The position numbers and the translations under genes were made by a program. Under the pieces are notes generated by a model. That model worked only from the letters and a program-made list of their open reading frames with translations, was not told the DNA's origin and made no database searches. DNA of 64,000 bases from an uncultured Planctomycetales bacterium (GTDB lineage: Bacteria; Omnitrophota; Gorgyraeia; Zapsychrales; JAHFFX01), in the NCBI GenBank assembly GCA_964464475.1, contig CAYXGG010000001.1, forward strand, positions 87,174 to 151,173, given 5' to 3'. Numbering within the stretch: position 1 is the stretch's first letter; each line of letters opens with the position of its first letter. Below are positions 37,053-62,096 of this stretch, piece by piece.

Positions 37053-37055
37053 AAA

Positions 37056-38889: not shown

Positions 38890-38910
38890 TCTTGAAGGGA
38901 GATCTGAAAT

Positions 38911-39444
38911 ATGTTTGCTGATTTTCGAGTGGATGTCAGTCGCTATTTGAGAGGCAAAGGGAAGAAAGAATTGATTTATTTGATTTTTGAACAGGGGATT
39001 TGGGCGATCGCCGTTTATCGATTCGGACGCTGGGTCCGGGAGGTCAAAATTCCTATCGTTTCACGAATTCTAAAATTAATTGCCTTTTTGTTATTTAAAA
39101 ATATAGAAATACTTACGGGTATTTCTTTACCTGCAAGTGCTCGGATTGGAAAAGGTTTTTATGTCGGACATTTTGGTGGGATCATTTTGCACAGTGATGC
39201 GGTATTAGGTGAACATTGTTCGATAGGTCCAGGCGTTCTGATTGGGACCAGAGGAATGGGGAATTTAGGGGTTCCGATTCTGGGGGACAACGTTTATGTG
39301 GGTGTTGGAGCTAAATTGCTTGGGGGGATAAAGATCGGGAATAATGTTCGTATCGGCGCGAATGCCGTGGTCCTTAAAGACGTTCCAGATGATGCGACGG
39401 TCGTAGGCATTCCGGCCAGAGTCATCACTAAGAGGGAAAAATGA
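38911..39444 (+). CDS. Hexapeptide-repeat acyltransferase (serine O-acetyltransferase / WcaB / WbpD-like sugar acetyltransferase)
   Basis: Left-handed beta-helix repeats (IGPGVLIGTRG...VYVGVGAKLLGGIKIGNNVRIGANAVV), with an N-terminus like CysE. Confidence 0.7.
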   Translation: MFADFRVDVSRYLRGKGKKELIYLIFEQGIWAIAVYRFGRWVREVKIPIVSRILKLIAFLLFKNIEILTGISLPASARIGKGFYVGHFGGIILHSDAVLGEHCSIGPGVLIGTRGMGNLGVPILGDNVYVGVGAKLLGGIKIGNNVRIGANAVVLKDVPDDATVVGIPARVITKREK

Positions 39445-40847: not shown

Positions 40848-40868
40848 TCCCAATTAAAATTTCTAAAA

Positions 40869-42002
40869 ATGAAAAGGCATTTGGTGTTATTGACGGATTG
40901 CTTAGAGGATGTTGAGGCTGGCGCCGAGCGGCAGATCTTTGAACTGGCGAATAGAATCCATAAGGATCAATATCGGGTGACGGTTGTGAGTTTAGGTTTA
41001 CCACCCAAAGAAAGGGTTAAAGTTCTTTTAGCCAAGGGAGGTGTTCAATTCTTGCATTGGCCGGTAAAAAGAATTTATGGATGGTCAGGGTTAATTCAGG
41101 GGATGCGGTTTCGTGCTTTCTTGGTAAAGGAAAAGGTTGATATCTTGCAGACGTATCATTTTGGGTCTGATATCTGGGGTGCTTTGTGGGGCTCGCTGGC
41201 AGGAGTTAAAAACATTATTTCTAATCGACGCGATATGGGGTTTTGGCGCAAGACATCGCATATCGTCACGTATAAATTATTGAATGGTAACGTTAAGAAA
41301 ATTGTGACTGTGACGGCCTCGGTGAAGCAGTTGGTTCAAGAGACCGAAGGTGTTGCTGAACAGAAGGTGGATGTCATTTATAACGGCGTTGAGTTAACTT
41401 TTACGGAAAGATCAAATACCGATATCATTGTCGAGCGAGCTCAGTTGGGCATTGGGCCTAAGGATTTGGTCGTTGTCCACGTGGCTAATATTCGCCCCGT
41501 TAAAGGGCACAAATATCTCATCGCCGCCATGCAAGAAGTCGTCAAAAAGCACCCTAATCTTAAATTGCTTTTGATCGGCGATGATACCCAAGATGGAGAG
41601 ATGCAAGAATTAGTTGCTCAGAAGAATTTAGAACAACATATTTTGTTCTTGGGTAAACGTCAGGATGCAAGAATGTTGGTTGATTTGGCAGATATTTGCG
41701 TTTTGCCTTCCTTAAGTGAAGGGATGTCCAATGCCATTCTCGAATATATGGCTGCGGGAAAGCCGGTCATTGCCAGTGCCGTGGGAGGAAATCCTGAATT
41801 AATAACTCCAGAGGTTAACGGTTTATTAGTGCCAGCCAAAGATTCCTCAGCGTTAGCTGCGGCCTTACAAAAATTGATTGAATCGCCAGAATCTCGCGCT
41901 CGCATGGGGCAGTCAGGTCTGGCGAAAGTTCAATCTGAGTTTACGATGGCAACGATGATCCATAAATACGAAAGACTTTACGATGCCTGCTTCGGGTCCT
42001 AA
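40869..42002 (+). CDS. Glycosyltransferase family 4
   Basis: EGMSNAILEYMAAGKPVIASAVGG. Confidence 0.7.
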   Translation: MKRHLVLLTDCLEDVEAGAERQIFELANRIHKDQYRVTVVSLGLPPKERVKVLLAKGGVQFLHWPVKRIYGWSGLIQGMRFRAFLVKEKVDILQTYHFGSDIWGALWGSLAGVKNIISNRRDMGFWRKTSHIVTYKLLNGNVKKIVTVTASVKQLVQETEGVAEQKVDVIYNGVELTFTERSNTDIIVERAQLGIGPKDLVVVHVANIRPVKGHKYLIAAMQEVVKKHPNLKLLLIGDDTQDGEMQELVAQKNLEQHILFLGKRQDARMLVDLADICVLPSLSEGMSNAILEYMAAGKPVIASAVGGNPELITPEVNGLLVPAKDSSALAAALQKLIESPESRARMGQSGLAKVQSEFTMATMIHKYERLYDACFGS

Positions 42003-43104
42003 GAAAGTTTTACATTTTATTAGCAGTAGCGGTTTATTTGGAGCGGAGCAGGTACTATTAACGCTTTGTCGAGGAGCTGACCGTAGTCAATATGAATTGA
42101 TAGTCGCGGCCTTAGAAGATCAACGTTCGCCGAATACGGCTATCCTGCAAGCCGCAGAAGCATTAGGCATTGCGACCTTTAAATTATCAAGCCGAGGTCG
42201 CTTTGACTTGGCTGCGGTGAAGGCTTTGTTGGAATTATTGCGATCACAACAAATTGATTTGATTCACTCGCATAATTATAAGTCCAATATGATTGCTTGG
42301 TTGGCGTCATTGAGGCAAAAAGTCGCTTTGTTATCCACGGCACATGGCTATACAGGTGTCTCGACTGCCGTCAAGATGTATGAAGCCTGTGACCGGTGGA
42401 TTTTACGGAACTTTTTTGACCGGGTTGTGGTCGTTGCTGATTCCATATTATTTAATTGGGTTTCTCAGAAGAAAGTAACCATTTGCAACGGAATTGATAT
42501 TCAGCGTTATAAGCTAATTAAAGAAGAAGGGAACTCTTGGCGTAAAAAATGGGGTATTGCGCCAGACGATTTGGTGATTGGATCGGTCGGGCGATTAAGT
42601 CTTGAAAAAAATTATGTTTTGTTATTGAAGGCGGTTCTTCGAGTTTTAAAGGCTAACTCAAAAGTGAAAGTTTTGTTGGTGGGGGATGGACCTCAAAGGC
42701 AGGAATTAAGTCAATTTATTAATGAACATGGTTTGCAAAAGCGGGTTATTTTGGCTGGTTTGCAACCTAATACTGCGCCACTTTATCAAGTCATGGATAT
42801 TTTTGTCCTGTGTTCAACCACCGAGGGAGTTCCTATGGTCTTAGCTGAAGCGATGGCCGCTGGGGTTCCGATTATTGCGACCAAAGTCGGAGGAGTCTCG
42901 AAAATGTTGGAAGAAGGAAAAAATGGTTGCTTGGTTGATTCTCAGGATGAATTGGGATTAACGGAAGCATTAGAGGAATTGCTAGCCAAGCCGGAGAAAC
43001 GCGCGCAGCTAATAATCAACGCGCAATTGACGGTAGAAAATAATTATTCAGCATCTCGGATGTGTAAACAATATCAACAGCTCTATGAGGAAATATTGCG
43101 ATGA
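41983..43104 (+). CDS. Glycosyltransferase family 4
   Basis: EGVPMVLAEAMAAGVPIIATKVGG. Confidence 0.7.
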   Translation: MPASGPKKVLHFISSSGLFGAEQVLLTLCRGADRSQYELIVAALEDQRSPNTAILQAAEALGIATFKLSSRGRFDLAAVKALLELLRSQQIDLIHSHNYKSNMIAWLASLRQKVALLSTAHGYTGVSTAVKMYEACDRWILRNFFDRVVVVADSILFNWVSQKKVTICNGIDIQRYKLIKEEGNSWRKKWGIAPDDLVIGSVGRLSLEKNYVLLLKAVLRVLKANSKVKVLLVGDGPQRQELSQFINEHGLQKRVILAGLQPNTAPLYQVMDIFVLCSTTEGVPMVLAEAMAAGVPIIATKVGGVSKMLEEGKNGCLVDSQDELGLTEALEELLAKPEKRAQLIINAQLTVENNYSASRMCKQYQQLYEEILR

Positions 43105-47397: not shown

Positions 47398-47439
47398 TTC
47401 GGCTGAAAGAAGTTCTCGATCTTTAAATAGCTGACTGAT

Positions 47440-47580
47440 ACTAGTAAACCATTCGGAAGAGTGGGACACAAAGCTAACCATGCTTTCTAGAGGTTCTTAA
47501 GGAAGCAGGTGCTCCAGTCCGTAGATGGCTGGAGTAGGGCCTAACCCCGTGTTGTGGATGTTGCCGGGCAGGTTGCCAGT
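47440..47580 (+). promoter_or_regulatory. Candidate c-di-GMP-I (GEMM) riboswitch aptamer
   Basis: GUAAACCAUUCGGAAGAGUGGGACACAAAGC reproduces the GEMM junction elements. These are the G-CAAA junction, a P2 hairpin CCAUUC-GGAA-GAGUGG with a GNRA loop, and GAC-ACAAAGC. It is followed by a CUCCAG...CUGGAGUAGG hairpin and a CCUAACC receptor-like element. From memory it closely resembles V. cholerae Vc2 (CAAACCAUUCGAAAGAGUGGGACGCAAAGCC). Confidence 0.45.
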
Positions 47581-47641
47581 TGCCAAAGCAGAGATAAGAT
47601 CGGTTAAATTAGCCGTTGTTAAGCTTTTAACTGATAATTGA

Positions 47642-47743: not shown

Positions 47744-50575
47744 ATGAGAAAAAACACAATAACAGTTCTTTTTCTGATGGGCTTTTGTTGGGGAGTGTCA
47801 GTTCCCTTAACGGAAGCGGCAACCTATTTTGTTCGACCAGATGGGGGTAACGCCACTCAGTGTACTGGTTTGAATGATGCCGCGTATCCAGGCAGCGGTA
47901 CCGCTCAAGCCTGTGCTTTAAATCACCCCTTTTGGGTGCTAGCTCCCAAGGGAAATAACCCATCCAAAATGCGAGGAGGGGATACCTTAATTATTGATGG
48001 TTCAAACAAAGCTCAATACATGATGGGTTGGGGAGCCCCCAATATTAACGATACGAGCATTTGTTATTCTGCATGGCCATGGGATTGTACGATGCGTCCG
48101 ATCCCTTCAGGTCCTGATCCGGCTCATCCTACCAGGATTTTGGGTAAGGGATGGGACACGGGTTGCGCCAATCCTCCTCAATTATGGGGTAAAGAAAAAG
48201 CATGGCATATTCTGACCTTGGCTGGAAGTAATAACGTAGAGGTCCAATGCTTGGAAATTACTGACCATGACCAGTGTCAATACTTGGGGCCTAATGGTTG
48301 TAATAACAGTAATGCCCCTTTTGGAAACTATGCGGTGATGGGTATTTTTGCCCAAGATAGTAATAATGTATTACTGAAGAATTTAAATATTCATGGTCTG
48401 CACACGGGTATAAAAGCAGGAAGAATTAAAGATTGGACCGTGGACAACACTAAAATCGTAGGGAACTCTTTTGTTGGCTGGAATGGTGATTTAGGCGGTG
48501 GAGTTAGTTCATCAAATTCAGGAACAATCACTTTTAATAAGAGTGTGATTGCTTATAGCGGTTGCGGTGAAACTTATCCGGGCAATCAACCGTATAACTG
48601 CTATAGCCAGGATCAAGGTGGCTATGGTGACGGTTTCGGAACAGAGAAAACGGGCGGAAACTGGATATTTAACAATGTGGATTTTAGCCATAATGTTTCC
48701 GATGGTTTAGATCTTCTTTATCATGATGGCAATGGTTCAATAACCATTAAACGGTCTCGATTTGAGGGCAATGCAGGAAACCAAGTTAAAACGGCGGGAA
48801 GTGCTGTAATAGAGAATTCGCTGTTGGTTGGAAATTGTGGTTACTTTAAAGATAAAGCATTCACTTATTCGGTCGGTGGTTTTAACCATTGTCGTGCCGC
48901 AGGCTCGACCTTAGCCGCTTTATTTTTCACCGGGAGCAAAGTCAGCTTGATGAATTCAACTCTTACCGGAAATGGTGACTCATTGATTATTTCTTCAGGA
49001 TCTACCTGTAATGGGACAGAATCCTTTACCTCAAGAAATAATATTATACTCGGTGGCACGGAATTCAACGATGGGGCCGACCTTAGCTCGTTGTATTATG
49101 CAACTGGAGCTATGGGAAATGGTGATGGGCCATGTGGAGCTGTTCAATTTGTGGACGCAGGTTCTGTATATTGGAACATAAAGAACCAAGTCAATGTTTG
49201 TGCCCAAAGACCGGGTTCTAAATGTGCTGATCCAAAATTTATTGGTCCAGTTGTTAAATATTTTTCTGGTGATGCTTATAATTTAGCTTTGAACGCAGAT
49301 AGTCCTGCGCGTAGTTTTGCCCAGGAATTAACTGGTATGTCGACGTTGGATTATAATAATTTTGACCGTGGATCAGATTGGGATTCGGGTGCTCTGGAAT
49401 ATGGCTCTGTATCTACCGTTGCGGCCGCCAGTATCTGTGGGAATAAATTAGTCGAGTATCCTGAGCAGTGTGATGACGGTAATTTAGTCAACGGTGATGG
49501 ATGTAATGCCTCATGCATCATTGAATCGCCTTCTGTCCCAGTGTGTGGTAATAAGGTTAAAGAAGGATCTGAACAATGTGATGACGGTAATCTAACGAAT
49601 GGCGATGGATGTAATAATGTTTGTCAAATCGAAGTGGCATCGCCGGTTTGTGGAAACGGTAAATTAGAGAGTTCAGAGCAGTGTGATGACGGCAACGTTT
49701 TAAATAATGATGGATGTAGCAGCGTTTGCCAGGTAGAGATTCTATCTGTTTGCGGTAACGCGAAGCTTGAGAGTGGTGAGCAATGCGATGATGGTAATAA
49801 GGTAAGTGGTGATGGGTGCTCTAGTTCTTGTGTAAGAGAGTTACCCATTTGCGGAAATGCTAAGTTGGAAGGTTCAGAGCAGTGTGACGATGGTAACTTA
49901 ATTAGCGGAGATGGGTGCTCTAGTTCTTGTGTGAAAGAGCTGCCGGTCTGTGGTAACGCGAAGCTCGAGAGTGGTGAGCAGTGCGATGATGGAAATAACA
50001 CCAATAATGATGGTTGCTCAAGCTCTTGTTTAAAAGAGAGTTTACCAGTCTGCGGAAATGGCATTAAAGAAGGAACCGAGGTTTGTGACGACGGCAACCT
50101 AGTGAGTAATGATGGCTGTAATAGCATTTGCAAAGCGGAATGGTGTGGTAACGGTATTAAAGAAGGACCGGAGCAATGCGATGATGGCAACTGGATTAAT
50201 CGGGATGGTTGCAGCGCATTGTGTATTTTGGAAAGTGTTAAACCAGTTTGCGGAAATGGAAAAAAAGAAGGAACCGAAGCTTGTGACGATGGAAATTTGG
50301 TGAGTAATGATGGGTGCTCAAGTAGCTGTAGTATTGAGCAAACACCTATCCCTGTGTGCGGAAATGAAAAGATAGAATCCCCTGAAACGTGCGATGATGG
50401 TAATAGAACTAGTGGGGATGGATGTAGCAGCAGTTGCCAAAAAGAGGTGGTAACGACCAGGCCGGTTTGTGGTAACGGTAAGTTGGAAGGTTCAGAACAG
50501 TGCGATGATGGTAACCGAGTCAGCGGTGACGGATGTAACCGCTATTGCAAAAAGGAGAGAATAAGAACCAGGTAA
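47744..50575 (+). CDS. Secreted 943-aa protein: N-terminal right-handed parallel beta-helix (pectate-lyase-like) domain plus 13 tandem cysteine-rich repeats
   Basis: Signal peptide (MRKNTITVLFLMGFCWGVSVPLTEA). Asparagine/glycine-rich beta-helix rungs with NNV repeats. About 565 aa of CGNxKxExxEQCDDGNxxxGDGCxxxC repeats (Myxococcus cysteine-rich repeat type). No PEP-CTERM tail. Confidence 0.8.
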   Translation: MRKNTITVLFLMGFCWGVSVPLTEAATYFVRPDGGNATQCTGLNDAAYPGSGTAQACALNHPFWVLAPKGNNPSKMRGGDTLIIDGSNKAQYMMGWGAPNINDTSICYSAWPWDCTMRPIPSGPDPAHPTRILGKGWDTGCANPPQLWGKEKAWHILTLAGSNNVEVQCLEITDHDQCQYLGPNGCNNSNAPFGNYAVMGIFAQDSNNVLLKNLNIHGLHTGIKAGRIKDWTVDNTKIVGNSFVGWNGDLGGGVSSSNSGTITFNKSVIAYSGCGETYPGNQPYNCYSQDQGGYGDGFGTEKTGGNWIFNNVDFSHNVSDGLDLLYHDGNGSITIKRSRFEGNAGNQVKTAGSAVIENSLLVGNCGYFKDKAFTYSVGGFNHCRAAGSTLAALFFTGSKVSLMNSTLTGNGDSLIISSGSTCNGTESFTSRNNIILGGTEFNDGADLSSLYYATGAMGNGDGPCGAVQFVDAGSVYWNIKNQVNVCAQRPGSKCADPKFIGPVVKYFSGDAYNLALNADSPARSFAQELTGMSTLDYNNFDRGSDWDSGALEYGSVSTVAAASICGNKLVEYPEQCDDGNLVNGDGCNASCIIESPSVPVCGNKVKEGSEQCDDGNLTNGDGCNNVCQIEVASPVCGNGKLESSEQCDDGNVLNNDGCSSVCQVEILSVCGNAKLESGEQCDDGNKVSGDGCSSSCVRELPICGNAKLEGSEQCDDGNLISGDGCSSSCVKELPVCGNAKLESGEQCDDGNNTNNDGCSSSCLKESLPVCGNGIKEGTEVCDDGNLVSNDGCNSICKAEWCGNGIKEGPEQCDDGNWINRDGCSALCILESVKPVCGNGKKEGTEACDDGNLVSNDGCSSSCSIEQTPIPVCGNEKIESPETCDDGNRTSGDGCSSSCQKEVVTTRPVCGNGKLEGSEQCDDGNRVSGDGCNRYCKKERIRTR
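49438..50565 (+). repeat. Thirteen imperfect tandem DNA repeats (about 114-120 bp) encoding the cysteine-rich modules
   Basis: Near-identical units recur, e.g. ggtaacgcgaagctYgagagtggtgagcaRtgcgatgatgg at about 49747 and 49955, and gatgggtgctctagttcttgtgt at 49811 and 49911. Confidence 0.85.
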
Positions 50576-50589: not shown

Positions 50590-50634
50590 CGCCCGGGAGA
50601 AGCTCCCCCCAGCTTCTTCCGGGCGATTTTTTTT
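50590..50634 (+). terminator. Intrinsic terminator after the beta-helix gene
   Basis: CGCCCGGGAGAAGCT-CCCCCC-AGCTTCTTCCGGGCG then ATTTTTTTTT. Confidence 0.8.
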
Positions 50635-50658
50635 AGGTTGAATGGCTGTATTATGGCT

Positions 50659-50686
50659 TGACAATACTTAATTCGGCTTTGATAAT
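50659..50686 (+). promoter_or_regulatory. Candidate sigma-70 promoter for the pilin-like/exosortase operon
   Basis: TTGACA-N16-GATAAT. It lies only about 12 nt before ATG 50699, so the transcript would be nearly leaderless. Confidence 0.3.
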
Positions 50687-50698
50687 TAAAAATTAATT

Positions 50699-51109
50699 AT
50701 GGTCGGTCCAAATTGCAAATTTAGTACTCATCCTTTTAAAAGAACTGGTTTTTCGCTTGTTGAATTATTAATTTCCGCGTTTGTTCTAAGCGTTGGAATC
50801 GCGGGAACGCTTATGTTCTTTACTTCCGCTTTGATTTCAGCAGATTTTGCTTTAGAGACTACTTTGGCTACATCTCATGCCGAGTTGATATTTGAAGAAA
50901 TGCGCTCCAAGGAAGCAATCCAAGAAATTACTTTTGTTGATTGGAATGAGTGGTTAAAAAAGCAGGATGTTAGCTTATTGCCCGAAGAGGCGGTTGAAAT
51001 TTCATATCTTGATCCAGCGAAAAGTCCTTTCCCCGTCAGCATGAAGGTTTCCTGGAGAGGGCGAGCCAGAATTCAAACCCAGGAATTTTATACTACTTTT
51101 ATTAAATGA
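50699..51109 (+). CDS. Prepilin-type N-terminal cleavage/methylation domain protein (minor pilin/pseudopilin-like)
   Basis: KRTGFSLVELLISAFVLSVGIAGTLMFF matches the G-F-[ST]-L-[IV]-E class-III signal peptide. Confidence 0.65.
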   Translation: MVGPNCKFSTHPFKRTGFSLVELLISAFVLSVGIAGTLMFFTSALISADFALETTLATSHAELIFEEMRSKEAIQEITFVDWNEWLKKQDVSLLPEEAVEISYLDPAKSPFPVSMKVSWRGRARIQTQEFYTTFIK

Positions 51110-51591
51110 ATTTTATTCGTCAGAAGCGAGCTTATACATTAATTGAAGTGTTAGTTAGTATCGCTATTTTTTCATTCATTCTGATGGCGCTTTATCAAAT
51201 GTTTGCTGTTGGTAATCGCTCCTGGGCTAACTATAACGAAAAGGTCGCTTTGCAGCGGGAGATTCGTTGGTCCATGTACGCCGTAGTCAAAGAGTTAAGA
51301 GAAGCCAAAAACATTTTTGTTACGGATGATTCTGAGAAAGTAAAAATTGCTTTTAAGAAAGACAATTTAGGAAGCTTTGCTTTCGTTTTTATGAAAACTG
51401 GGCAACAGAGAAATAAATTATTTTTCGAGCGACCTAATCAAAAGCGGGTTCTCTCTAGCAGTGTAACAAATCTTAAAGTAGATCAAATCAGTAAACACCT
51501 GATAGAAATTGAAATTACGGGAATGAAGCAGCCGTTGTTTTCCAAATTGATTACTTTTAAGCTAAAGCAACGGATTCTTCTTAGGAACTAA
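51106..51591 (+). CDS. Prepilin-type N-terminal domain protein (pseudopilin-like, variant Ala at the cleavage site)
   Basis: QKRAYTLIEVLVSIAIFSFILMAL. Start overlaps the previous stop (ATGA). Confidence 0.6.
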   Translation: MNFIRQKRAYTLIEVLVSIAIFSFILMALYQMFAVGNRSWANYNEKVALQREIRWSMYAVVKELREAKNIFVTDDSEKVKIAFKKDNLGSFAFVFMKTGQQRNKLFFERPNQKRVLSSSVTNLKVDQISKHLIEIEITGMKQPLFSKLITFKLKQRILLRN

Positions 51592-51596
51592 ATTTC

Positions 51597-52751
51597 ATGA
51601 TTTGCTCTCAAATGAAAAGAAGTCGATTGCGTAACGAACGAGGGTCTATATTAATTTTTGCTTATTTTTTGTTGGCTTTTCTCGTGACGTTATCGGCGGG
51701 TTTTGCTTTAACCAATTTTGGAGAATTAAATGATAGTCGGCGCTATTTGAATTCGGTAAAGGCGTTTTGGCTTGCGGAAGCGGCACTTAATGAGTATTTG
51801 CAAGAGCCAGAAATATTAGACGGTTTTCGTCAGAAGACATTGGAATATCCTGGGGGGCAGGTTGTTTTGCAAAAAGATGATTCTCAGCCCATGCTGCGAA
51901 TTCTTACGGCAAAAGCTAATGTGAGTGGCAGCGAACGTGAAATTACGATGGAATTCCCAGCACATGCACCGGAAGTTTTTAATAATACTATTTCTGCTCG
52001 CGGGGACATAGACTTAAGTGGCAGTAAGATTTCAGCCACTTTTACCGGTAAAACAAAAGTAAGCGGAAAGTTAAGAAAATCATATAAATTCGGTAGTGCA
52101 ATTTTTGAAGATTTAAGTGAGAACGTTGATAAGAATTTGGTGACGATGTTTTACCCGGACGCTAATAATAATGGTGTTGTTGATGAATTCGATGATTTTG
52201 TGGCTATTAATCGTAATATTATCGAGAATTATTCTTCTGATGAGGTGGTTTATTTGCGAGGCAATGATACATTTACGGTGGTCCCCGATGCTAAGCTGGC
52301 GGGTAAGAAAATTTTATATGCCGAGGGTACTAAGAGTGGAAAGGGAAGTGTCGTGATTCAGTTTACCGGAGAACTTAATCCAGAAGAAAATCTTACGGTG
52401 ATTTCCACCGGAACGGTAAGCTTTAATCAGTTGGGAGGGCAGACCGACTCGCAGTTAAATATTATTGCCTGGGAAGGGTATCGAGAGATGGCCACGTTGC
52501 CAGGAGAGCATAAGGGCATTACCTACACGCATGGGAGTGCCGTTATCGATCGAATTCATGAAGAATCTGTTTCGCATGGAATTTTGGTCGCTCACAGTGG
52601 CGTTTCGGTGAAAGAAATTTGGGCGAATAAGCTTTTTCAATACGCTGATCCTCGAGTCAAAGGGCTAATCCCTCCTGGTTTTGAAGGTATGATTGGCGGG
52701 AAGCTTTCGGCTGGATACTTGTCGGAGCCGAGTGTCTGGAGGGAAAAATAA
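51597..52751 (+). CDS. PilX-N-like minor pilin/pseudopilin-associated protein
   Basis: NERGSILIFAYFLLAFLVTLSAGFA resembles the PilX_N domain, with a ~330-aa beta-rich C-terminal part. Confidence 0.5.
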   Translation: MICSQMKRSRLRNERGSILIFAYFLLAFLVTLSAGFALTNFGELNDSRRYLNSVKAFWLAEAALNEYLQEPEILDGFRQKTLEYPGGQVVLQKDDSQPMLRILTAKANVSGSEREITMEFPAHAPEVFNNTISARGDIDLSGSKISATFTGKTKVSGKLRKSYKFGSAIFEDLSENVDKNLVTMFYPDANNNGVVDEFDDFVAINRNIIENYSSDEVVYLRGNDTFTVVPDAKLAGKKILYAEGTKSGKGSVVIQFTGELNPEENLTVISTGTVSFNQLGGQTDSQLNIIAWEGYREMATLPGEHKGITYTHGSAVIDRIHEESVSHGILVAHSGVSVKEIWANKLFQYADPRVKGLIPPGFEGMIGGKLSAGYLSEPSVWREK

Positions 52752-52752
52752 T

Positions 52753-53295
52753 ATGATCCGAAATCCCTGGGTGTGGGGCGCGGCATTTCTTCTTGTATTT
52801 TTAGGCTTTGGTTCTTTAAATCGATGGGTTAGCCATAAGATGCAGCGGAATTTGGGGTCTGCTGTGATTGCGAATTCAGAATTGAAAGAATCTAAAAAAC
52901 AAGATGGATTTATGCAGCTTCCTTTAGATTTTGCAAGCTGGAACATTTTGCCTGGAAAAAAGGCGGATGACCCCGCTAAATTCGGAATTATTGTCTCAAA
53001 AGATGCCTCGCATAATAACGTGGCTCAATGGGAGCAGGGTGCCAAGAAATCTATGCAAGGGGTCAGATCAATCTCTACGGTCGGTGAAGTCAAAGACAAA
53101 GATAAGGTTAAGATATCTTTGTCTTTGGAAGAATATCAGCAAAAGGTTAATCTTATTAATTTGGAGATTGAATCCGTTGAGTTAGAATTAGAGAGTATGC
53201 CCAGCGATCCGGAATTGCTTTCTAAATTGCAAGGTTTGACGATAATGAAGGCGACGCTAGAGTCATTAAAAAACAAAATTATTTCAAAGTTGTGA
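52753..53295 (+). CDS. Small bitopic membrane protein with a C-terminal coiled coil
   Basis: One transmembrane segment (WVWGAAFLLVFLGFGSL) and a heptad-repeat tail. Start at ATG 52753; the tracked ORF has an upstream out-of-frame-neighbour extension. Confidence 0.45.
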   Translation: MIRNPWVWGAAFLLVFLGFGSLNRWVSHKMQRNLGSAVIANSELKESKKQDGFMQLPLDFASWNILPGKKADDPAKFGIIVSKDASHNNVAQWEQGAKKSMQGVRSISTVGEVKDKDKVKISLSLEEYQQKVNLINLEIESVELELESMPSDPELLSKLQGLTIMKATLESLKNKIISKL

Positions 53296-53296
53296 T

Positions 53297-54481
53297 ATGG
53301 AATTATTAATGGTTGTGTATTTCTGGTTTTTTCTATTTGCCATTGTTTTTTGCTATTTTGGTTATCCATCGATTCTGGCTTTGGTGAGCCGCTGGCGGGG
53401 TTGCGCTGTTGCCGTAAGCCCTAGTGAGGCGGCCCGGGTATCGGTTATTATTGCGGTTTGCAATGAAGAGGATGTTCTTGAACGTAAGTTGAATAATATT
53501 TTTTCTTTAGAGTTCCCTTCTCAATTTGAAATTTTGATTGGTTCGGATGGTTCTACAGATCAAACAGAAAGAATTCTTAAAGATTATAAAGACGAGAGAT
53601 TGAGGCCTTATGTTTATTCTGAACGTAGGGGGAAAATAGCAGTCATTGCTGATTTGGTGACGCAAGCCAAAGGGGATATCGTTGTTTTTACTGATGCTAG
53701 ACAGCAATTTGCGAAAAATGCGATAGTGGAACTAGTTAAAAATTTTGGGGATCCAAAGGTGGGCTGTGTTAGTGGAGAGTTGGTGTTTCATAGCAGTCAG
53801 GGAACTACAGGCAAAGGTATTCAATTGTATTGGGATTATGAGAAATGGTTGCGGCGCATGGAGAGTCAGATCCACTCTATGTTGGGAGCGACGGGTGCCA
53901 TTTATGCGATCAGAAAAGAGTTGTTTGTGAAGCCGCCGCCTGATGTTGTTCTCGATGATATGTACATTCCTTTAAAGATTGTAGCCGGTGGCTATCGCGC
54001 TATTTTTGAAGAAAATGCTCGTGCCTATGATCACGTTGCGGAAGATGGGGGAGAGGAGTATTCTCGAAAAACTAGAACGCTTTACGGTAACTTTCAAATA
54101 TTCACTTTATTCTCTGAATTGTTTGATCTTCGGAAAAGTCCGGTGGCCTTGCAGTTGTTGTTTCATAAGTTTCTAAGAGTCGTGGTGCCGTTCTTAATGA
54201 TTGCGTTTTTTGCAACTAATATTTTTTTGATTCCTCATGGTTGGTTCTTTTTCTCGGTTATGCTAGGGCAAATTTTATTTTATGGATTAGCGCTTTTAGG
54301 ATGGTGGTCTAGAAAAAATAGTTCTTTTCTGGATAAGTATATTAATAAACTTTCTGCTATCCCTTATGTTTTTTGTTTGTTAAATTATTCTGCTTTTATT
54401 GGTTTCGTTCGATTTGTTAAAAGGGATCAGGCCGTTGCCTGGCAAAAGGCGCGTTCGGCTAGGGAAGCCGCCAATTGCTAA
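53297..54481 (+). CDS. Membrane glycosyltransferase family 2 (cellulose/chitin-synthase-like, exosortase-associated)
   Basis: VSVIIAVCNEEDVLERKL...ILIGSDGSTDQT...FTDARQ, with N- and C-terminal transmembrane helices. Confidence 0.7.
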   Translation: MELLMVVYFWFFLFAIVFCYFGYPSILALVSRWRGCAVAVSPSEAARVSVIIAVCNEEDVLERKLNNIFSLEFPSQFEILIGSDGSTDQTERILKDYKDERLRPYVYSERRGKIAVIADLVTQAKGDIVVFTDARQQFAKNAIVELVKNFGDPKVGCVSGELVFHSSQGTTGKGIQLYWDYEKWLRRMESQIHSMLGATGAIYAIRKELFVKPPPDVVLDDMYIPLKIVAGGYRAIFEENARAYDHVAEDGGEEYSRKTRTLYGNFQIFTLFSELFDLRKSPVALQLLFHKFLRVVVPFLMIAFFATNIFLIPHGWFFFSVMLGQILFYGLALLGWWSRKNSSFLDKYINKLSAIPYVFCLLNYSAFIGFVRFVKRDQAVAWQKARSAREAANC

Positions 54482-54487
54482 TTCGTT

Positions 54488-55306
54488 ATGCCAATTATTA
54501 GAAAATATGCCGCAGAGTTGTTGGTCGGTGGGCTTTTTTTGTTAGCCTATTTTCCTATTTTATTATGGATGTTTAGTCGTTGGTTTGCGAGAGACTCTTA
54601 CTATAGTCACGGGATATTGGTTCCTTTTGTGGCCGCTTTTTTAATCTGGCAAAATCGGGATGAATTAACTAAAATTCAGAGAGTTCCAGATTATCGTGGG
54701 CTGATATTGATTTTTATCGGTCTATTTGTTTTAGTGGTTAGTTCGACGTTAAGAATATACTTTTCAGCGGCGTTTAGTATGCCCATAGTTTTAGTTGGGC
54801 TGGTGATGCTTTTTGGGGGAAATAGTTTATTGAAGGCTCTTTCGTTCCCGCTGGCGTTCACATTATTCATGATCCCATTGCCAGAGGTCGTTATTACCAA
54901 TATTAGTTTTAATATGAAAATATTTGCGGCGCAAATTGCCACGCATGTTTTAAATAATAATCTAAGAATGCCAGCGGTACGCGAGGGGAGTCTTATTAAA
55001 ATGCGCAGTGCCTATGTCATGGTGGATGATGTGTGTAGTGGTTTAAGATCGCTTATTTCATTGACTGCTTTGGGTAGTGTTTTTGCTTACTGGTTAAAGG
55101 GCGCTTGGTGGAAGAGGTTGCTTCTATTTGCTTCAACGATCCCCATTGCCATTATTACCAATGTCGTTCGGATTATCTTTCTTTCCGCAGTGAGTGAGAT
55201 TTGGGGGCCACAATACGCTTCTGGATTTTTGCATGATCTTTCGGGGTTTTTGGTTTTTGGATTGGCCTTCTTATTATTATTTGCAGTTTCAAAGCTAATA
55301 GAATAA
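54488..55306 (+). CDS. Exosortase (EpsH/XrtA family transpeptidase)
   Basis: Eight transmembrane helices. The conserved Cys lies in MVDDVCSGLRSLISL and the Arg in ITNVVRIIFL. The N-terminus MPIIRKYAAELLVGGLFLLAYFPILLWMFSRW is typical. Confidence 0.85.
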   Translation: MPIIRKYAAELLVGGLFLLAYFPILLWMFSRWFARDSYYSHGILVPFVAAFLIWQNRDELTKIQRVPDYRGLILIFIGLFVLVVSSTLRIYFSAAFSMPIVLVGLVMLFGGNSLLKALSFPLAFTLFMIPLPEVVITNISFNMKIFAAQIATHVLNNNLRMPAVREGSLIKMRSAYVMVDDVCSGLRSLISLTALGSVFAYWLKGAWWKRLLLFASTIPIAIITNVVRIIFLSAVSEIWGPQYASGFLHDLSGFLVFGLAFLLLFAVSKLIE

Positions 55307-55307
55307 A

Positions 55308-55949
55308 ATGTTGATAAAAAAATCAGCTTATGTAGTAATTTTGGTTTCATTTTTGGGGGTCGGGTTCATTTCTTGGTTGTTGTATTTTAAAGATCAGAAC
55401 CAACAAGATACGGTTAATATTCAAGTTTTCCCGAAGGCTATAGCTGACTGGAGCGGGGTAGATCAAGTTATTAGCGAAGAAGACTATGCTATTTTGGAAA
55501 CCAGAAATGTTCTGGCTCGAAGATACACTCAGGCTGGTACGGGTCGACAAATAGATTTACTTATTGTTTATTCAGAGCATAATCGTAAAGTGTCTCATCC
55601 TCCCGAGATTTGTTTTACGGGTGGTGGGTTGTCTATTCTGGAAAGTAAGCGCGCAGTCTTAAATCTAGATAAGAACGGCCGAGGGTTAGAAGCGGTGCGG
55701 CTGCTTATGGATTTGAAGGGAACGCCGCTGTATTCCTTCTATTGGTTTAAAGTCGGTAATTCTGTAACCTCTAACTACTGGAGGCAACAATTTTTGATTG
55801 CTTTAAAGATTTTTTCTGGGCAACCGCATAGTAGCGCCTTGATAAGGTTGACATTAGAAATAAAACTGGATGACAAAATCGAAGCCGTTGCTACTGCGGA
55901 GAAGTTCGCCGATCTTGTTTTTCCTGCCGTAAAGCAGTATCTGCCGTAA
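55308..55949 (+). CDS. EpsI-family exosortase-associated protein
   Basis: N-terminal transmembrane segment then the EpsI domain, immediately after the exosortase gene (1-nt gap). Confidence 0.75.
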   Translation: MLIKKSAYVVILVSFLGVGFISWLLYFKDQNQQDTVNIQVFPKAIADWSGVDQVISEEDYAILETRNVLARRYTQAGTGRQIDLLIVYSEHNRKVSHPPEICFTGGGLSILESKRAVLNLDKNGRGLEAVRLLMDLKGTPLYSFYWFKVGNSVTSNYWRQQFLIALKIFSGQPHSSALIRLTLEIKLDDKIEAVATAEKFADLVFPAVKQYLP

Positions 55950-56234: not shown

Positions 56235-57059
56235 ATGAGTCGATATACTAAATTAATATTTTTGAGCATATTAGCAATTTTGACCGTGGTAAGTACTGTT
56301 TTTGCTATACCGGTTAAATCTGATGACGCTAGGGAAGTCATAGAAGAGGCAAGGATTTCTCAAATTCCGGCTCAGTTGCCAACAGATTCGAAGTCTAGAG
56401 CTCCGGAGCCCACGTCCATGGCGCTTTTTGGGAGTGGTATATTGGGGATGGTTGTCAGTTTCTTTCGTCGTACCTATATTTTGATAAAGAGAGCATTTGA
56501 TGTTTTTGCTGCGATCCTAGGTTTGCTGTTCTTGGCGCCGCTTTTTGTTATTGCCGCTTTCTTGATAAAATTTACTTCAAAAGGGCCAATTATTTATAAG
56601 CAAGTTAGAGTTGGAAAAAACGGTAAGCTTTTTGAAATTTATAAATTTCGTTCAATGCGTACGGATGCTGAAAAAGATAGTGGCCCTGTTTGGGCTAAAG
56701 CCAACGATAATCGTCTCATCCCGCCGGGAAAATTTTTAAGAAAAACCCGAATTGATGAATTACCTCAATTTATTAATGTTCTAAAAGGTGATATGAGCTT
56801 GATCGGGCCTCGTCCGGAGCGACCTGTTTTTGTTGAGAAATTTAAAGAAGTTATTCCTGACTACGAGAAGCGTCTGGCCGTCAAACCTGGGATTACGGGA
56901 TTAGCTCAAGTGTGGCATAAATATGATGAAACGATTGAGGATGTTAAAAAGAAAATTCGTTATGATTTGGTTTATATTAAAAAAGTCAATTTGTGGACTG
57001 ATTTAGGAATATTTTTTAGAACATTTCGAGTTGTTATTACTGGTCAAGGCGCTCAATAA
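56235..57059 (+). CDS. Bacterial sugar transferase (polyprenyl-phosphate phosphoglycosyl transferase, small WbaP/PglC type) with an in-frame N-terminal signal peptide plus PEP-CTERM-like motif
   Basis: Residues 1-79 form a signal peptide and ...SRAPEPTSMALFGSGILGMVVSFFRR (PEP, a transmembrane helix, then RR). This runs without a stop into IKRAFDVFAAILGLLFLAPLF...GPIIYKQVRVGKNGKLFEIYKFRSMR...GPRPERP, the sugar-transferase core. A TTG at 56481 would give a typical MIKRAFD start but has no ribosome-binding site. Confidence 0.7.
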   Translation: MSRYTKLIFLSILAILTVVSTVFAIPVKSDDAREVIEEARISQIPAQLPTDSKSRAPEPTSMALFGSGILGMVVSFFRRTYILIKRAFDVFAAILGLLFLAPLFVIAAFLIKFTSKGPIIYKQVRVGKNGKLFEIYKFRSMRTDAEKDSGPVWAKANDNRLIPPGKFLRKTRIDELPQFINVLKGDMSLIGPRPERPVFVEKFKEVIPDYEKRLAVKPGITGLAQVWHKYDETIEDVKKKIRYDLVYIKKVNLWTDLGIFFRTFRVVITGQGAQ

Positions 57060-57146: not shown

Positions 57147-57428
57147 ATGAAAAGTACATTTTCAAAGTTAAAAATTTTATCTTTGTTAGGATTTATGCCT
57201 GCAATTTATGGTTGTGGGGCTGGTGGTGGGGCTTTAGGGGCTCTTTTTGGTGCAGTGGGTGGAGGTGTTGCTTCAGCTTTTGGTGGAGGTGGTTCTTTAG
57301 CGTTAGACAGTGGGGGTGGCAGTGGTGGTATTGGTGTTGCGACATTTCATAATCCAGAACCCACATCAATGGCATTATTAGGAACAGGGATGGCTGCCAT
57401 GGCGCTTTATCGAAAGTTTAAGAAATAG
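57147..57428 (+). CDS. Small glycine-rich PEP-CTERM protein (exosortase substrate)
   Basis: Signal peptide (possible lipobox IYGC), about 45 aa of glycine-rich low-complexity sequence, then C-terminal PEPTSMALLGTGMAAMALYRKFKK. Ribosome-binding site TAAGGAG. Confidence 0.8.
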   Translation: MKSTFSKLKILSLLGFMPAIYGCGAGGGALGALFGAVGGGVASAFGGGGSLALDSGGGSGGIGVATFHNPEPTSMALLGTGMAAMALYRKFKK

Positions 57429-58479: not shown

Positions 58480-59384
58480 AGAAGTGCATTGTTTTTATGG
58501 TTCTTGTTTTGGGCGGGATGTTTCTTTTATTTACTGTTTTGGGTCAAGATGGTGATTATGGCGCAGAACAAGAAATGTGGATAGCTAACAAGAAATTTAA
58601 ATTAATTACTCTGGATCCGGCTAATACTCCAGATCAGGAATTTATTAGATTAGAAAAGGTTTATCGAAAAGTAATTAATCGGTACCCGAACTCGTATTTA
58701 ATTAATCAGGCGTATCTTAATATTGGAAGAATGTATGTCTATAAACGAGATTATCGACTAGCTAGAGAGAAGTATCAGGAGATAATAAGAAATTTTCCTC
58801 AAAATCGGATCCTGACATCTGAGGCTTGGATCGCGATGGGGCAGAGTTTTGAGCTGGAGGAGAACTCGCAGGAGGCATTGAGAATTTATAAAATGGTGAT
58901 TAACCAGTTTTCGGAGACTGACTCTGGGCTAATGGCTCCGCTGTATGTAATAAACTTTTTGAAGAAACTAAAGAAAGATGAGGATCTTGAGGAGTTTTTG
59001 ATTCAAGTTGAGCCGCATTATCGAAATTTAGCTAGTAAGCACAAGGGGTCAGCCTTAGAGATTAAATCATTACGTATGTTAACAAACGCTTATTTGCAGC
59101 AAGAGAAATGGGATGCCGCCGTATCTGTCTTGGGAGATATATTATTGCAGTCAATGGCTTCAAGCCAATTGACTCCACAAGAGGCAAATGTTCTTATAAG
59201 ATCAATAAACGCTATCTCAATTACTGAATTGAAGAATTATGATTTGCCGATTAAAATCTACGAAGAATTTATTGCCAGTTACCCTAACCACGGTCTTAGT
59301 CGCCTCATGAAGGAATTGATTAAAGCTTTGACTGCTTTGAAATCTCAGAAGGCGGAGTTTACTCCAAAGAGTTTTGTGCCATGA
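58476..59384 (+). CDS. Secreted TPR-repeat protein
   Basis: Signal peptide (MKKCIVFMVLVLGGMFLLFTVLG) and TPR-like helical repeats (YLNIGRMYVYKRDYRLAREKYQEIIRNFP). ATGA overlap with the previous gene. Confidence 0.55.
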   Translation: MKKCIVFMVLVLGGMFLLFTVLGQDGDYGAEQEMWIANKKFKLITLDPANTPDQEFIRLEKVYRKVINRYPNSYLINQAYLNIGRMYVYKRDYRLAREKYQEIIRNFPQNRILTSEAWIAMGQSFELEENSQEALRIYKMVINQFSETDSGLMAPLYVINFLKKLKKDEDLEEFLIQVEPHYRNLASKHKGSALEIKSLRMLTNAYLQQEKWDAAVSVLGDILLQSMASSQLTPQEANVLIRSINAISITELKNYDLPIKIYEEFIASYPNHGLSRLMKELIKALTALKSQKAEFTPKSFVP

Positions 59385-60700
59385 AAACTACTTCTGCTCA
59401 ACATTCTGAAGAGATGCTTTTGGGAAAGCCCAATGCTTTTCAAAAAGTCAGCGACATTTGTTCCGGTGTTAATTCGGTCAAAGACGAAAACGAGTTGCTG
59501 ACTCAGAATCTGGGTCAACTCTTAGAGCTATTCTCAGCCAGGAGGGGCTCGATATTTATTTTTAATGCCCGGCGAAAAGAGTTGGATCTTAAGGTATCTA
59601 AAGGAATGGCTACAGCTGAACAGAAACATTTGGTCAAGCGTATGGGGGAGGGAGTGGTTGGGAAAGTTGCAGAATTGAAGCAGCCAATTGTGGTTGATGA
59701 TATCTCTAAGGACGATCGGTTTCATAATTATCATGCTCGGGGAAGTTATCGTTCACCTTCTTTCATTTGTGCTCCTTTGTTGTTAAAAGATCAGTTGTTG
59801 GGAGTCATTAGTATCGCAGACAAAGTATCTGGACAGAGGTTTAGTAAAGATGAATTGCTTTTGCTCGACTTTTTGTCGAGTCAGATAGCCTTGAATTATA
59901 AACGGATAAAGTTATATAAGAAATTCAGAAATGTTATTAAAGAGGCGCAAAGTTTAAAGAACGCTTTGGGAAAAAAGTCCGATGAGGCTAATCAGCTCAG
60001 AAAACAGATCGTTGTTCAAGAAAAGTTTGCTTCTATTGGTAAATTGGCGGGTGGAATCGCGCATGAGTTTAATAATCCACTTGACGGGGTTATTCGATAC
60101 ACGAATCTTTCTTTAGAACATCTGAAGAATGATGATGTTGTTCGTGGGTATCTGTTGGAAATAAGGCAAGGATTGCATCGAATGGCCAATATTGTTAGGA
60201 ATTTATTGGCTTGTTCCCGAAATACTCAGGCAAGTATGCAAAAGGTTGATGTGAATCATCGAATTGAGCAGGTCGTGAATGGACTGCAGTCAGATTTTTT
60301 TATGAAGGGAATTAATTTGCGGAAGGATTTCTCTAAAGATATTCCGCTGGTCGTTGATTTAGGGTTAGACTTGATTTTCTCTAATTTACTAAGAAATGCT
60401 ATTGATGCGGTAAAATCAGGCGGTACTATAAAAATATCTACAAGGTTTGCTCAAGAAGTTCTTACTATCCGAGTTGAGGATAATGGATGCGGGATTCCCT
60501 CCGAAATGATGGAGCAGATATTTGAACCATTCTTCACCACTAAGGATATCGAGAAGGGGTGCGGTTTGGGTTTAACAATTGTAGATGAGATTGTCAAAAG
60601 TTATGGCGGGCGTATCCATTTGGAGAGTGCGCCGGATAAAGGAACGGCTTTTACGATCACATTACCAGCGAAGGTATCTACTTATGCAAAAAAACACTAA
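59381..60700 (+). CDS. Cytoplasmic GAF-domain sensor histidine kinase (PrsK-like position)
   Basis: GAF domain (GVVGKVAELKQPIVVDDISKDDRF). HisKA with the phospho-accepting His in GGIAHEFNNPL. HATPase_c N/G boxes (LRNAIDA, DNGCGIP, GCGLGL). No transmembrane segments. Confidence 0.8.
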   Translation: MKTTSAQHSEEMLLGKPNAFQKVSDICSGVNSVKDENELLTQNLGQLLELFSARRGSIFIFNARRKELDLKVSKGMATAEQKHLVKRMGEGVVGKVAELKQPIVVDDISKDDRFHNYHARGSYRSPSFICAPLLLKDQLLGVISIADKVSGQRFSKDELLLLDFLSSQIALNYKRIKLYKKFRNVIKEAQSLKNALGKKSDEANQLRKQIVVQEKFASIGKLAGGIAHEFNNPLDGVIRYTNLSLEHLKNDDVVRGYLLEIRQGLHRMANIVRNLLACSRNTQASMQKVDVNHRIEQVVNGLQSDFFMKGINLRKDFSKDIPLVVDLGLDLIFSNLLRNAIDAVKSGGTIKISTRFAQEVLTIRVEDNGCGIPSEMMEQIFEPFFTTKDIEKGCGLGLTIVDEIVKSYGGRIHLESAPDKGTAFTITLPAKVSTYAKKH

Positions 60701-62096
60701 CAATCATCTTCATATTTTGATTGTCGATGATGAGCCTTTGATACGTCAATCATTGTTTGAAAGTCTGAGGATTGAAGGTTTTCAAGCCACGATGTCGAGT
60801 AATGGCGAAGATGCCTTGGAAAAGTTAAGAAATAACAAAGTAGATATTCTATTAACTGATTTAAAGTTGCCCAAAATGTCCGGTATTCAATTGTTAGAGA
60901 AAGTTAAAAAAGACTACCCGCAAATTGAGGTGATTTTGATTACGGGATTTGGAACGATCGAGACGGCTGTTGAAGCGATGCGTAAAGGCGCTTACGACTA
61001 TATTACTAAGCCAATAAATGACCAAGAGGTGCGTTTGATTTTGCAGAAAATTGTGGAAAAGAAACAGATTCTGCAAGAAAACCAAGATTTAAAGAAAATT
61101 ATTGATAGAACGACGCCTAATTCATTTTGTAGTTTAGTCGGTCGCAGCGAGAAAATGCAGAAAGTTTATCAGATCATTGAATCAGTGGCGAGCACAAATG
61201 CGACTATATTAATTAATGGGGAGAGTGGCACGGGTAAAGGAATGACGGCTAACGCTATTCATCAAAGCGATCGACTCCGCGGCGATAAGCCATTTGTAGA
61301 GGTTAGTTGTGGGGCTTTATCGGAAACTTTGTTGGAAAGTGAGCTGTTTGGTCATGTGAAAGGGGCGTTTACGGGTGCAATTAAGGATAAGGAGGGGCGT
61401 TTTGAATTTGCCAAAGGGGGTACCATCTTTCTCGATGAAATTGACGCCTTTTCGCCTAATTTGCAGGTTAAGTTATTGAGGGTTCTTCAAGATGGGGTTT
61501 TTGAAAGAGTGGGGGATAATAAAACGCGCCACGCGGATGTGCGAATTATTGTGGCTACTAACCAAAATCTAAATGAATTGGTCGCGAAGGGGAAGTTTCG
61601 AGAGGATTTGTATTATCGCATTAATGTCATTGCCATTCCTTTGCCACCCTTAAGAGAGCGTCGGGATGATATTGAGTTTTTAGCCAAATTCTTTATTGAG
61701 AAATACAGTAAAATTAATCGTAAGTCTGTGTCTGGGCTTTCATTGGAAGCTTTGGATCTTTTTAAGGGGTACCATTGGCCTGGAAATGTTCGAGAGCTCG
61801 AAAATGCTATTGAGGGTGCTGTTATTATGGCCAAAAAAGAAATAATTCAAAAAGAGGATATTCCATCTGTTAATCGGATGTTGGAGGGGTATGGCGCTCG
61901 CTCGGCGATGGTTGGTTCGAGTTCAGATTTGGATCAATCTCTGAAGAAAAATTTAGAAACACCTGAGAAAGAACTTATTCTTGCAGTGTTAGAAGAATGT
62001 CGCTGGAATAGAAATAAGGCTGCTGAAAGGTTAGGAATTAATCGGACCACGTTGTATAACAAAATGAAGAAGTACAATATATCTTTTGATAAATAA
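60684..62096 (+). CDS. Sigma-54-dependent response regulator (NtrC family; PEP-CTERM-box regulator PrsR-like)
   Basis: Receiver domain (ILIVDDEP...D in DLKLPKMSG). AAA+ Walker A GESGTGKG, the GAFTGA motif and the ESELFGH arginine-finger region. C-terminal Fis-type helix-turn-helix (RWNRNKAAERLGINRTTLYNKMKK). Start at internal ATG 60684; the upstream part of the tracked ORF is an out-of-frame extension into the kinase gene. Confidence 0.85.
   Translation: MQKNTNNHLHILIVDDEPLIRQSLFESLRIEGFQATMSSNGEDALEKLRNNKVDILLTDLKLPKMSGIQLLEKVKKDYPQIEVILITGFGTIETAVEAMRKGAYDYITKPINDQEVRLILQKIVEKKQILQENQDLKKIIDRTTPNSFCSLVGRSEKMQKVYQIIESVASTNATILINGESGTGKGMTANAIHQSDRLRGDKPFVEVSCGALSETLLESELFGHVKGAFTGAIKDKEGRFEFAKGGTIFLDEIDAFSPNLQVKLLRVLQDGVFERVGDNKTRHADVRIIVATNQNLNELVAKGKFREDLYYRINVIAIPLPPLRERRDDIEFLAKFFIEKYSKINRKSVSGLSLEALDLFKGYHWPGNVRELENAIEGAVIMAKKEIIQKEDIPSVNRMLEGYGARSAMVGSSSDLDQSLKKNLETPEKELILAVLEECRWNRNKAAERLGINRTTLYNKMKKYNISFDK

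Follow-up and report, generated by a model that had tools for sequence, protein, structure and literature searches.

Why should an operon for an exosortase and its partner EpsI begin with three genes for prepilin-type proteins, with no pilus assembly machine encoded beside them? The question is raised by seven genes within a stretch of 64,000 nucleotides (contig CAYXGG010000001.1 of assembly GCA_964464475.1; hereafter the window), from a metagenome-assembled genome (MAG) that was deposited as an uncultured Planctomycetales bacterium and is placed in Omnitrophota by GTDB. We found that the three pilin-like genes, together with the gene for a small membrane protein that follows them, are a four-gene cassette conserved across Omnitrophota. 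On balance we favor the view that this cassette (50699-53295) is a paralogous minor-pilin cassette of the type IVa pilus (T4aP), placed at the head of an XrtA-like exopolysaccharide (EPS) operon for a family 2 glycosyltransferase (GT2), an exosortase and EpsI, and that it provides an alternative pilus tip.

An earlier description of this DNA, made from the letters alone (the sequence-only reading), had reported tightly packed genes preceded by a terminator, and both features were reproduced. All seven open reading frames (ORFs) from 50699 to 55949 on the plus strand were confirmed; a 4-nt ATGA overlap (51106-51109) is followed by gaps of 5, 1, 1, 6 and 1 nt, and every intergenic gap is 6 nt or less. 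The fourth gene (cc180, for a 180-aa protein) starts at 52753, the first ATG within a longer ORF that begins with TTG at 52693. No other terminator-like site in 11 kb is as strong as that at 50590-50634, and similar hairpins lie 3' of the orthologous upstream gene in L004, L006 and L007 (L numbers denote loci of relatives). The sigma-70-like match in front of the operon would leave a leader of just ~6 nt. Promoter-like hits are as frequent in shuffled sequence as in this region (24.9 expected, 26 observed), thus we treat this match as a mere consensus hit. A candidate sigma-54 promoter, TGGCTG-N5-TGGCT at 50643-50658, has the correct GG/GC spacing and was rejected, as it is not conserved upstream of the L004, L006 and L007 orthologues.

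The N-terminal motif of type IV pilins, G/A↓(F/M/Y)xxxE followed by a hydrophobic helix, is present in the first two genes, and both proteins pass the Pfam N_methyl (PF07963) cutoff of 21.2 bits (Table 1). Assignment to named families is less firm. Minor pilin 1 scores 30.5 bits against the PilV model TIGR02523 (cutoff 52.2) and 18.7 bits against the GspI model TIGR01707 (cutoff 44.35), and minor pilin 2 scores 34.3 bits against the GspJ model TIGR01711 (cutoff 64.85). The glutamate at position 5 (Glu5) is present in genes 1 and 2 and absent in gene 3, and the proteins run from small to medium to large, like the order gspI-J-K. Because the GspI, GspJ and PilV scores are all below cutoff, we take this likeness as resemblance and not as membership. 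A single-sequence structure model of minor pilin 2 was unusable (predicted local distance difference test score, pLDDT, 51). Two other pilin-like sets were considered and rejected. Of the Verru_Chthon four-gene cassette models (TIGR02596-02600) only TIGR02599 gave a match, at 27.1 bits against a cutoff of 256.5 and over the N-terminal 59 residues, and the HpsC model NF038304, for the Hps pseudopilins, gave 12.4 bits against a cutoff of 200.

The third gene encodes the tip pilin, which has no Pfam hit of its own and no match to the NCBIfam GspK model. Its N-terminus is a G↓SILIF helix that lacks Glu5, as in GspK. An AlphaFold2 model built from a 74-sequence alignment (pLDDT 91, predicted template-modeling score 0.79) predicts an N-terminal helix (14-69), a four-strand pilin sheet (79-122), a beta-solenoid (~132-350) and a final C-terminal strand. 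The model thus has the alpha-beta pilin fold, and the position of the final strand after the solenoid fits a solenoid module inserted in the pilin domain. As modeled, the protein combines a pilin domain with a beta-solenoid module of the ice-binding-protein type, as does the Thermus tip pilin ComZ, which was its best whole-protein match, followed by GspK. The sequence-only reading had called all three proteins minor-pilin- or pseudopilin-like, which agrees with the N_methyl hits and the tip-pilin model, and had given each of them a class-III signal peptide. The signal peptides stand for the first two. For the third the proposed PilX_N-likeness is indirect: one homologue carries PF14341 (PilX_N), and the structure model points the same way. 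In two linked loci the tip-pilin gene is frameshifted into two ORFs (L031 7417-8548 and L032 2966-4109), either from decay or from assembly error.

The product of the fourth gene belongs to an unannotated family. It has no Pfam family above its cutoff; a profile search of the PDB found a tetratricopeptide repeat (TPR)-like hairpin, which bears 'DPxN', as its sole resemblance, and a homologue search returned just the query. The family was therefore assembled by gene position in the loci and not by sequence search. In most cassettes, in every context, a bitopic homologue of 155-210 aa lies directly 3' of the tip-pilin gene. It is replaced by a deacetylase in one sub-branch of the linked clade described below, and a 102-aa ORF at this position in L165 has no detectable relation to the 180-aa protein.

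All 76 of 76 homologues of the tip pilin came from Candidatus Omnitrophota or from unnamed metagenome sequences. A scan of one genome per species gave 79 cassette loci, all in Omnitrophota MAGs, some of them mislabeled; the ORFs of all loci, with starts set by our own ORF caller, were searched with the window proteins and with PilB/PilC-type proteins from one locus. Small pilin, medium pilin and large protein form an invariant unit, nearly always followed by the bitopic protein. We found this unit in three contexts. The first is that of the window: a DUF4215 gene, then cassette, GT2, exosortase and EpsI, then a PEP-CTERM sugar transferase. This order, whose co-occurrence elsewhere the sequence-only reading had left to be checked, is kept in ~20 species-level Omnitrophota genomes and also on metagenome contigs. 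In the second context the cassette stands alone amid housekeeping genes, for example between valS and nadC. In the third, at ~10 loci, it lies directly beside genes for a GGDEF protein, an MshEN protein, two PilB-like ATPases (T2SSE), PilC (T2SSF) and a pilin. Many MAGs titled 'uncultured Planctomycetales', 'Planctomycetia' or 'Gammaproteobacteria' (L008, L009, L014, L017, L020 and others) bear this Omnitrophota-specific cassette, and these are probably mislabeled.

Around PilC homologues, the full Omnitrophota cluster comprises MshEN, two PilB-like ATPases, PilC, a major pilin, PilM, a PilN-like protein, PilO, a PilP-like protein and a secretin. In L165, within a PilB/PilC cluster, ORFs lying between the major pilin gene and pilM match the pilin 1, pilin 2 and tip profiles (47-56 bits). 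Because homologous cassettes adjoin or sit within such PilB/PilC/PilM clusters, we regard the family as the T4aP minor-pilin set of Omnitrophota. Judged by these relatives, the window cassette is probably a tip/priming set of this kind, which would need machinery encoded elsewhere.

The sequence-only reading had remarked on the lack of machinery genes, and the remark holds. No T2SSE or T2SSF homologue occurs anywhere in the 64-kb window, and a Pfam scan of its ORFs of at least 120 aa, five in 36081-43104 excepted, detected neither a secretin nor a prepilin peptidase domain. Minor-pilin operons without machinery genes are normal, for example fimU-pilVWXY1E of Pseudomonas. Since the family lies beside complete machinery elsewhere, the lack of ATPase, platform and secretin genes in the operon is the normal state of a minor-pilin operon. 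Consistent with this, T4aP genes have been reported from nearly all Omnitrophota classes (PMC10066038). We also considered, and rejected, the GspI/J/K genes of a type II secretion system (T2SS) gsp operon: none of GspC/D/E/F/L/M was found among the window ORFs scanned, and no GspC, GspL or GspM gene was seen in the machinery clusters of the relatives, which are of the PilM/PilO/secretin type.

Trees of the tip pilin and of the exosortase were made by neighbor-joining, without support values. The exosortase-linked tip pilins form one clade, whose sister clade is unlinked or PilB-linked. One 39-kb contig bears both a linked copy (L006) and an unlinked copy of the sister type (L021), so that the two are paralogues in one genome. 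Two or three pilin1-pilin2-tip cassettes stand in tandem in L040 (4321-11630), L041, L063, L066, L076 and L003, which suggests interchangeable pilus tips. The association of cassette and exosortase is real, conserved and optional. Exosortase orthologues of 54-61% identity, the same range as within the linked clade, occur without the cassette; in L087, L088, L089, L096 and L115 the EPS neighbors are the same and there is no pilin ORF in the 1.6-8 kb upstream of the exosortase. In the exosortase tree such orthologues are nested among the linked ones, and the outgroups also lack the cassette. The simplest history would be one insertion of the cassette followed by several losses or relocations. 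Pairwise distances of the tip pilin correlate with those of the exosortase (r 0.64) and of pilin 2 (r 0.69). No operon joining exosortase or PEP-CTERM genes with pseudopilins, minor pilins or type IV pili was found in the full-text literature, and two Omnitrophota genome surveys (one of them PMC10066038) do not mention exosortase. The pilin-exosortase neighborhood, which the sequence-only reading had called unusual, is thus undescribed before, and its components are themselves of known kinds.

We propose the following mechanism. In one Omnitrophota lineage a cassette of a GspI/PilV-like pilin, a GspJ-like pilin, a GspK/ComZ-like solenoid-bearing tip subunit and a conserved bitopic membrane protein was placed at the head of a GT2-exosortase-EpsI operon. 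A housekeeping prepilin peptidase would process the three pilins, which would then assemble as a priming/tip complex on a PilB/PilC/PilMNOPQ machine whose genes lie elsewhere in the genome. The major pilin would polymerize below this complex and give a pilus capped by the solenoid, an exposed adhesin that probably binds polysaccharide or the surface of a partner cell. Since the cassette and the exosortase genes presumably share a transcript, production of this tip variant would coincide with that of the EPS/PEP-CTERM matrix.

Several observations weigh against this proposal. The matches of pilins 1 and 2 to GspI, GspJ and PilV are solely at sub-cutoff scores, and profile searches of the PDB with these two proteins matched the N-terminal helix alone. 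PilB, PilC, PilD and a secretin were located neither in this genome, of which 64 kb was read, nor in the genomes with linked cassettes. The sequence-only reading had considered that the pilin genes might belong to a complete pilus operon elsewhere; this holds for the family in relatives and not for the part of this genome that was read. The predicted co-transcription of the cassette with GT2, exosortase and EpsI is based on gene spacing alone. Since close exosortase orthologues occur without the cassette, the link is facultative and not obligatory. Compared with their unlinked sister type, the linked tip pilins have changed little, with only 7 clade-specific positions, and their sequences give no clear sign of a new ligand.

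The last two points lead to the strongest rival, which holds that an ordinary T4aP operon was inserted together with the DUF4215 gene in a co-directional EPS locus and has been carried along vertically with no functional tie. The occurrence of the cassette in at least three unrelated contexts and the scant sequence specialization of the linked tip pilins speak for this explanation, as does the nesting of cassette-less orthologues within the linked clade, a pattern that implies that the cassette was lost or relocated more than once. Moreover, because the entire EPS locus is syntenic, conservation of the junction is not independent evidence. Nevertheless the linked genes keep the same position and strand with minimal gaps across ~20 species in which tip-pilin identity averages only ~47%, and the second, unlinked copy kept in one genome suggests sub-functionalization. 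In addition, the only genes ever seen between cassette and GT2 are those for EPS-modifying polysaccharide deacetylases and for one toxin-antitoxin pair, each in the same orientation as the operon; this AbiEii toxin/helix-turn-helix (HTH) antitoxin-like pair lies at 8684-9954 in L013 and at the equivalent places in L015 and L032. We therefore consider an incidental neighborhood rather unlikely.

Two further readings give the cassette a part in exosortase function itself. In the broader one, which we hold to be a long shot, the linked cassette encodes a dedicated pilus or pseudopilus whose solenoid tip and bitopic partner directly engage the products of the exosortase and might ferry or anchor PEP-CTERM-processed proteins or the GT2 polymer on the cell surface. 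If true, this would give exosortase systems of this lineage their missing outer-envelope step. In the narrower one, a dedicated short pseudopilus, made of the three pseudopilins and the small membrane protein, acts directly with the exosortase as a new secretion route that moves PEP-CTERM-processed proteins or the GT2 polymer across the envelope. The placement of the cassette in one tightly packed operon with GT2, exosortase and EpsI speaks for such a route, cyanobacterial Hps pseudopilins are annotated as polysaccharide-secretion components (by the name of NF038304), and the passage of exosortase cargo through the outer membrane is still to be explained (PMC12188702). However, neither an ATPase nor a platform gene is encoded in the window, the ORFs scanned include no peptidase or secretin, and the locus already has a Wza-like exporter, Wzz/tyrosine-kinase proteins and ABC-2/Wzt export genes. 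The same family also sits in ordinary T4aP clusters, and since close exosortase orthologues occur without the cassette, the exosortase has no need of it in cis. This secretion route is accordingly improbable, and the uncharacterized assembly or secretion module that the sequence-only reading had suggested is not supported.

Weakest, and in our judgment very improbable, is a T2SS-like pseudopilus tip dedicated to secreting the neighboring riboswitch-controlled DUF4215 protein: that gene does lie immediately upstream of the cassette in all linked loci whose sequence extends far enough, and gene order and Glu5 pattern are like GspI-J-K, but a terminator stands between the two units, unlinked cassettes lack a DUF4215 neighbor, L089 has a DUF4215-like gene after EpsI and no cassette, and the machinery of the relatives is, as described above, not of the Gsp type.

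The features of the region are collected in Table 1. The DUF4215 gene has its own putative control element, a riboswitch-like element of the cyclic di-GMP (c-di-GMP)-I type. The sequence-only reading had named a riboswitch here; the copy in the window falls below the Rfam gathering score of 35 (E 1.4e-4; its insert spans about 101 nt, against 33 in the model), and the elements at the orthologous position of five relatives are above threshold. Those in L004 (5628-5712), L006 (686-782), L007 (3151-3233) and L009 (5733-5810) match RF03167, the c-di-GMP-I-GGC variant, at 59.5-61 bits, and that in L013 (454-524) matches RF01051 at 44.8 bits. A c-di-GMP theme thus recurs, in this riboswitch, degraded in the window, and in the GGDEF and MshEN domains of the machinery clusters. 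The PilB-linked cassettes (L003 9701-16284, L044-L047, L052, L072 and L078) are always accompanied by a GAF-GGDEF protein, a stand-alone 148-aa MshEN protein and two MshEN-domain PilB-like ATPases. This gene company points to c-di-GMP control of pilus assembly in Omnitrophota.

Table 1. Coordinates of the pilin-exosortase operon and its neighboring features in the window
Feature	Coordinates	Strand	Evidence or remarks
c-di-GMP-I-type riboswitch-like element, upstream of DUF4215 gene; separate transcription unit	47433..47587	+	RF01051 32.6 bits
Secreted 943-aa protein, 11 cysteine-rich DUF4215/TIGR02232 repeats	47744..50575	+	domain hits, synteny
Intrinsic terminator	50590..50634	+	15-bp stem, 10 G-C pairs, T run; divides DUF4215 gene from pilin operon
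Sigma-70-like promoter match	50658..50686	+	TTGACA-17-GATAAT, consensus match only
Minor pilin 1, 136 aa, PilV/GspI-like	50699..51109	+	prepilin motif G↓FSLVE, Glu5; PF07963 25.7 bits
Minor pilin 2, 161 aa, GspJ-like	51106..51591	+	motif A↓YTLIE, Glu5; PF07963 31.3 bits
Tip pilin, 384 aa	51597..52751	+	GspK/ComZ-like pilin domain without Glu5, with ice-binding-protein-like beta-solenoid
Fourth cassette gene, 180 aa	52753..53295	+	N-terminal transmembrane helix, 'DPxxYG(I/M)xV', 'TQxxWD', C-terminal helical TPR-like hairpin
Membrane GT2, synthase-type, PgaC/NodC-like	53297..54481	+	PF00535 77 bits; TIGR03937 60.8, below cutoff
Exosortase, generic, XrtA-like	54488..55306	+	PF09721 226.7 bits; TIGR02602 179.8 (cutoff 105.55)
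EpsI, exosortase-associated	55308..55949	+	PF11984 110.6 bits; TIGR02914 79.4 (cutoff 42.8)
Priming sugar-phosphate transferase	56235..57059	+	PF02397 231 bits; PF07589 21.7 (cutoff 20.7); TIGR03025 312.6 (cutoff 295.55)
93-aa Gly-rich PEP-CTERM protein	57147..57428	+	PF07589 22.9 bits

The GT2, exosortase and EpsI named by the sequence-only reading all have clear domain hits. The exosortase scores 175.1 against the XrtA model TIGR03109, below its cutoff of 208, and so is not assigned to the XrtA subtype. Its Cys183, Arg228 and His249, which we take to be the catalytic residues, are invariant in the family alignment. The priming transferase downstream has a signal peptide, ~30 periplasmic residues and a full PEP-CTERM module ('RAPEPTSMALFGSGILGMVVSFFRR') before its Bac_transf domain. 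This internal motif is kept in 17 of 17 distinct orthologues examined (L004-L027), and our literature search found no paper on a PEP-CTERM module within a priming transferase. Such an internal exosortase signal in the initiating enzyme suggests either that a small peptide is cleaved off or that the transferase docks to the exosortase. A C-terminal PEP-CTERM motif was found in the window only in the 93-aa protein, a likely exosortase substrate.

Elsewhere in the window are genes for heme biosynthesis, rpoN and an extended EPS locus that encodes a Wza-like exporter, Wzz/GNVR, an 'XrtA-associated' ATPase, a tyrosine kinase, two ABC-2/Wzt pairs, many glycosyltransferases and Wzy. The EPS locus is bracketed by rpoN (5526-6893, minus strand) on one side and by a GAF histidine kinase and a PrsR-like sigma-54 activator (59381-62096, plus strand) on the other; the activator scores 412 against TIGR02915, whose cutoff is 503. 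In the window every XrtA-system-specific model falls slightly short of its cutoff, and this suggests that Omnitrophota have a divergent version of the XrtA system.

Our data bear on how exosortase cargo and matrix reach the cell surface and are retained there. The interplay of type IV pili with self-made polysaccharide is known from few model organisms, and Omnitrophota are an uncultured, largely host-associated phylum. The fusion at the operon level offers a concrete, testable link between pilus tips and exosortase that is conserved over deep divergence, and the paralogous cassettes suggest that Omnitrophota swap pilus tips. In practical terms the value is modest: the parts are recognizable, the link is optional and these organisms do not yet allow experiments.

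Among known systems, the modeled tip pilin is most like ComZ of the ComZ-PilA2 competence pilus tip of Thermus thermophilus (PDB 6QVI; PMC6561018), with which it shares the pilin domain and beta-solenoid. It differs in sequence (identity only 10-14%), in size (384 aa, where the crystal chain of ComZ has 518 residues) and in its setting, an EPS/exosortase operon with no competence genes nearby, and would thus represent a second lineage of such 'pilin plus solenoid' tip proteins, outside competence. The GspI-GspJ-GspK tip complex (PDB 3CI0) has the same small-medium-large order and Glu5 pattern; here the NCBIfam GspI and GspJ scores are sub-cutoff and none of gspC, D, E, F, L or M is among the window ORFs scanned. 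In addition, the insert in GspK is a helical domain, whereas that of the tip pilin is the solenoid. The T4aP core minor pilins of Pseudomonas and Neisseria are FimU-PilV-PilW-PilX with PilY1. Like them, the cassette lies in an operon apart from pilB/C/D and pilMNOPQ and has a presumed priming and tip-adhesin role; unlike them, it has three pilins and not four, no PilY1 and an extra conserved bitopic protein.

The surrounding genes resemble the XrtA/PEP-CTERM EPS system (Haft 2006, PMC1569441) in the exosortase, EpsI, Wza-like exporter, chain-length determinant and associated ATPase, and further in the tyrosine kinase, PrsR-like sigma-54 regulator, rpoN and PEP-CTERM proteins. They differ in that the XrtA-specific models are sub-cutoff, the priming transferase carries a PEP-CTERM module and the operon includes a pilin cassette. 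Functionally, the closest precedent is the hormogonium polysaccharide (HPS) system of Nostoc punctiforme, which includes glycosyltransferases and in which type IV pilus motility, the polysaccharide, the HpsB-D pseudopilins, the cyanoexosortase CrtB and PEP-CTERM proteins interact (PMC12188702). In Nostoc the HPS genes are scattered over several loci in the genome, crtB belongs to a Wzx/Wzy-type locus and no pseudopilin-exosortase operon is described (PMC12188702), whereas the Omnitrophota operon joins both.

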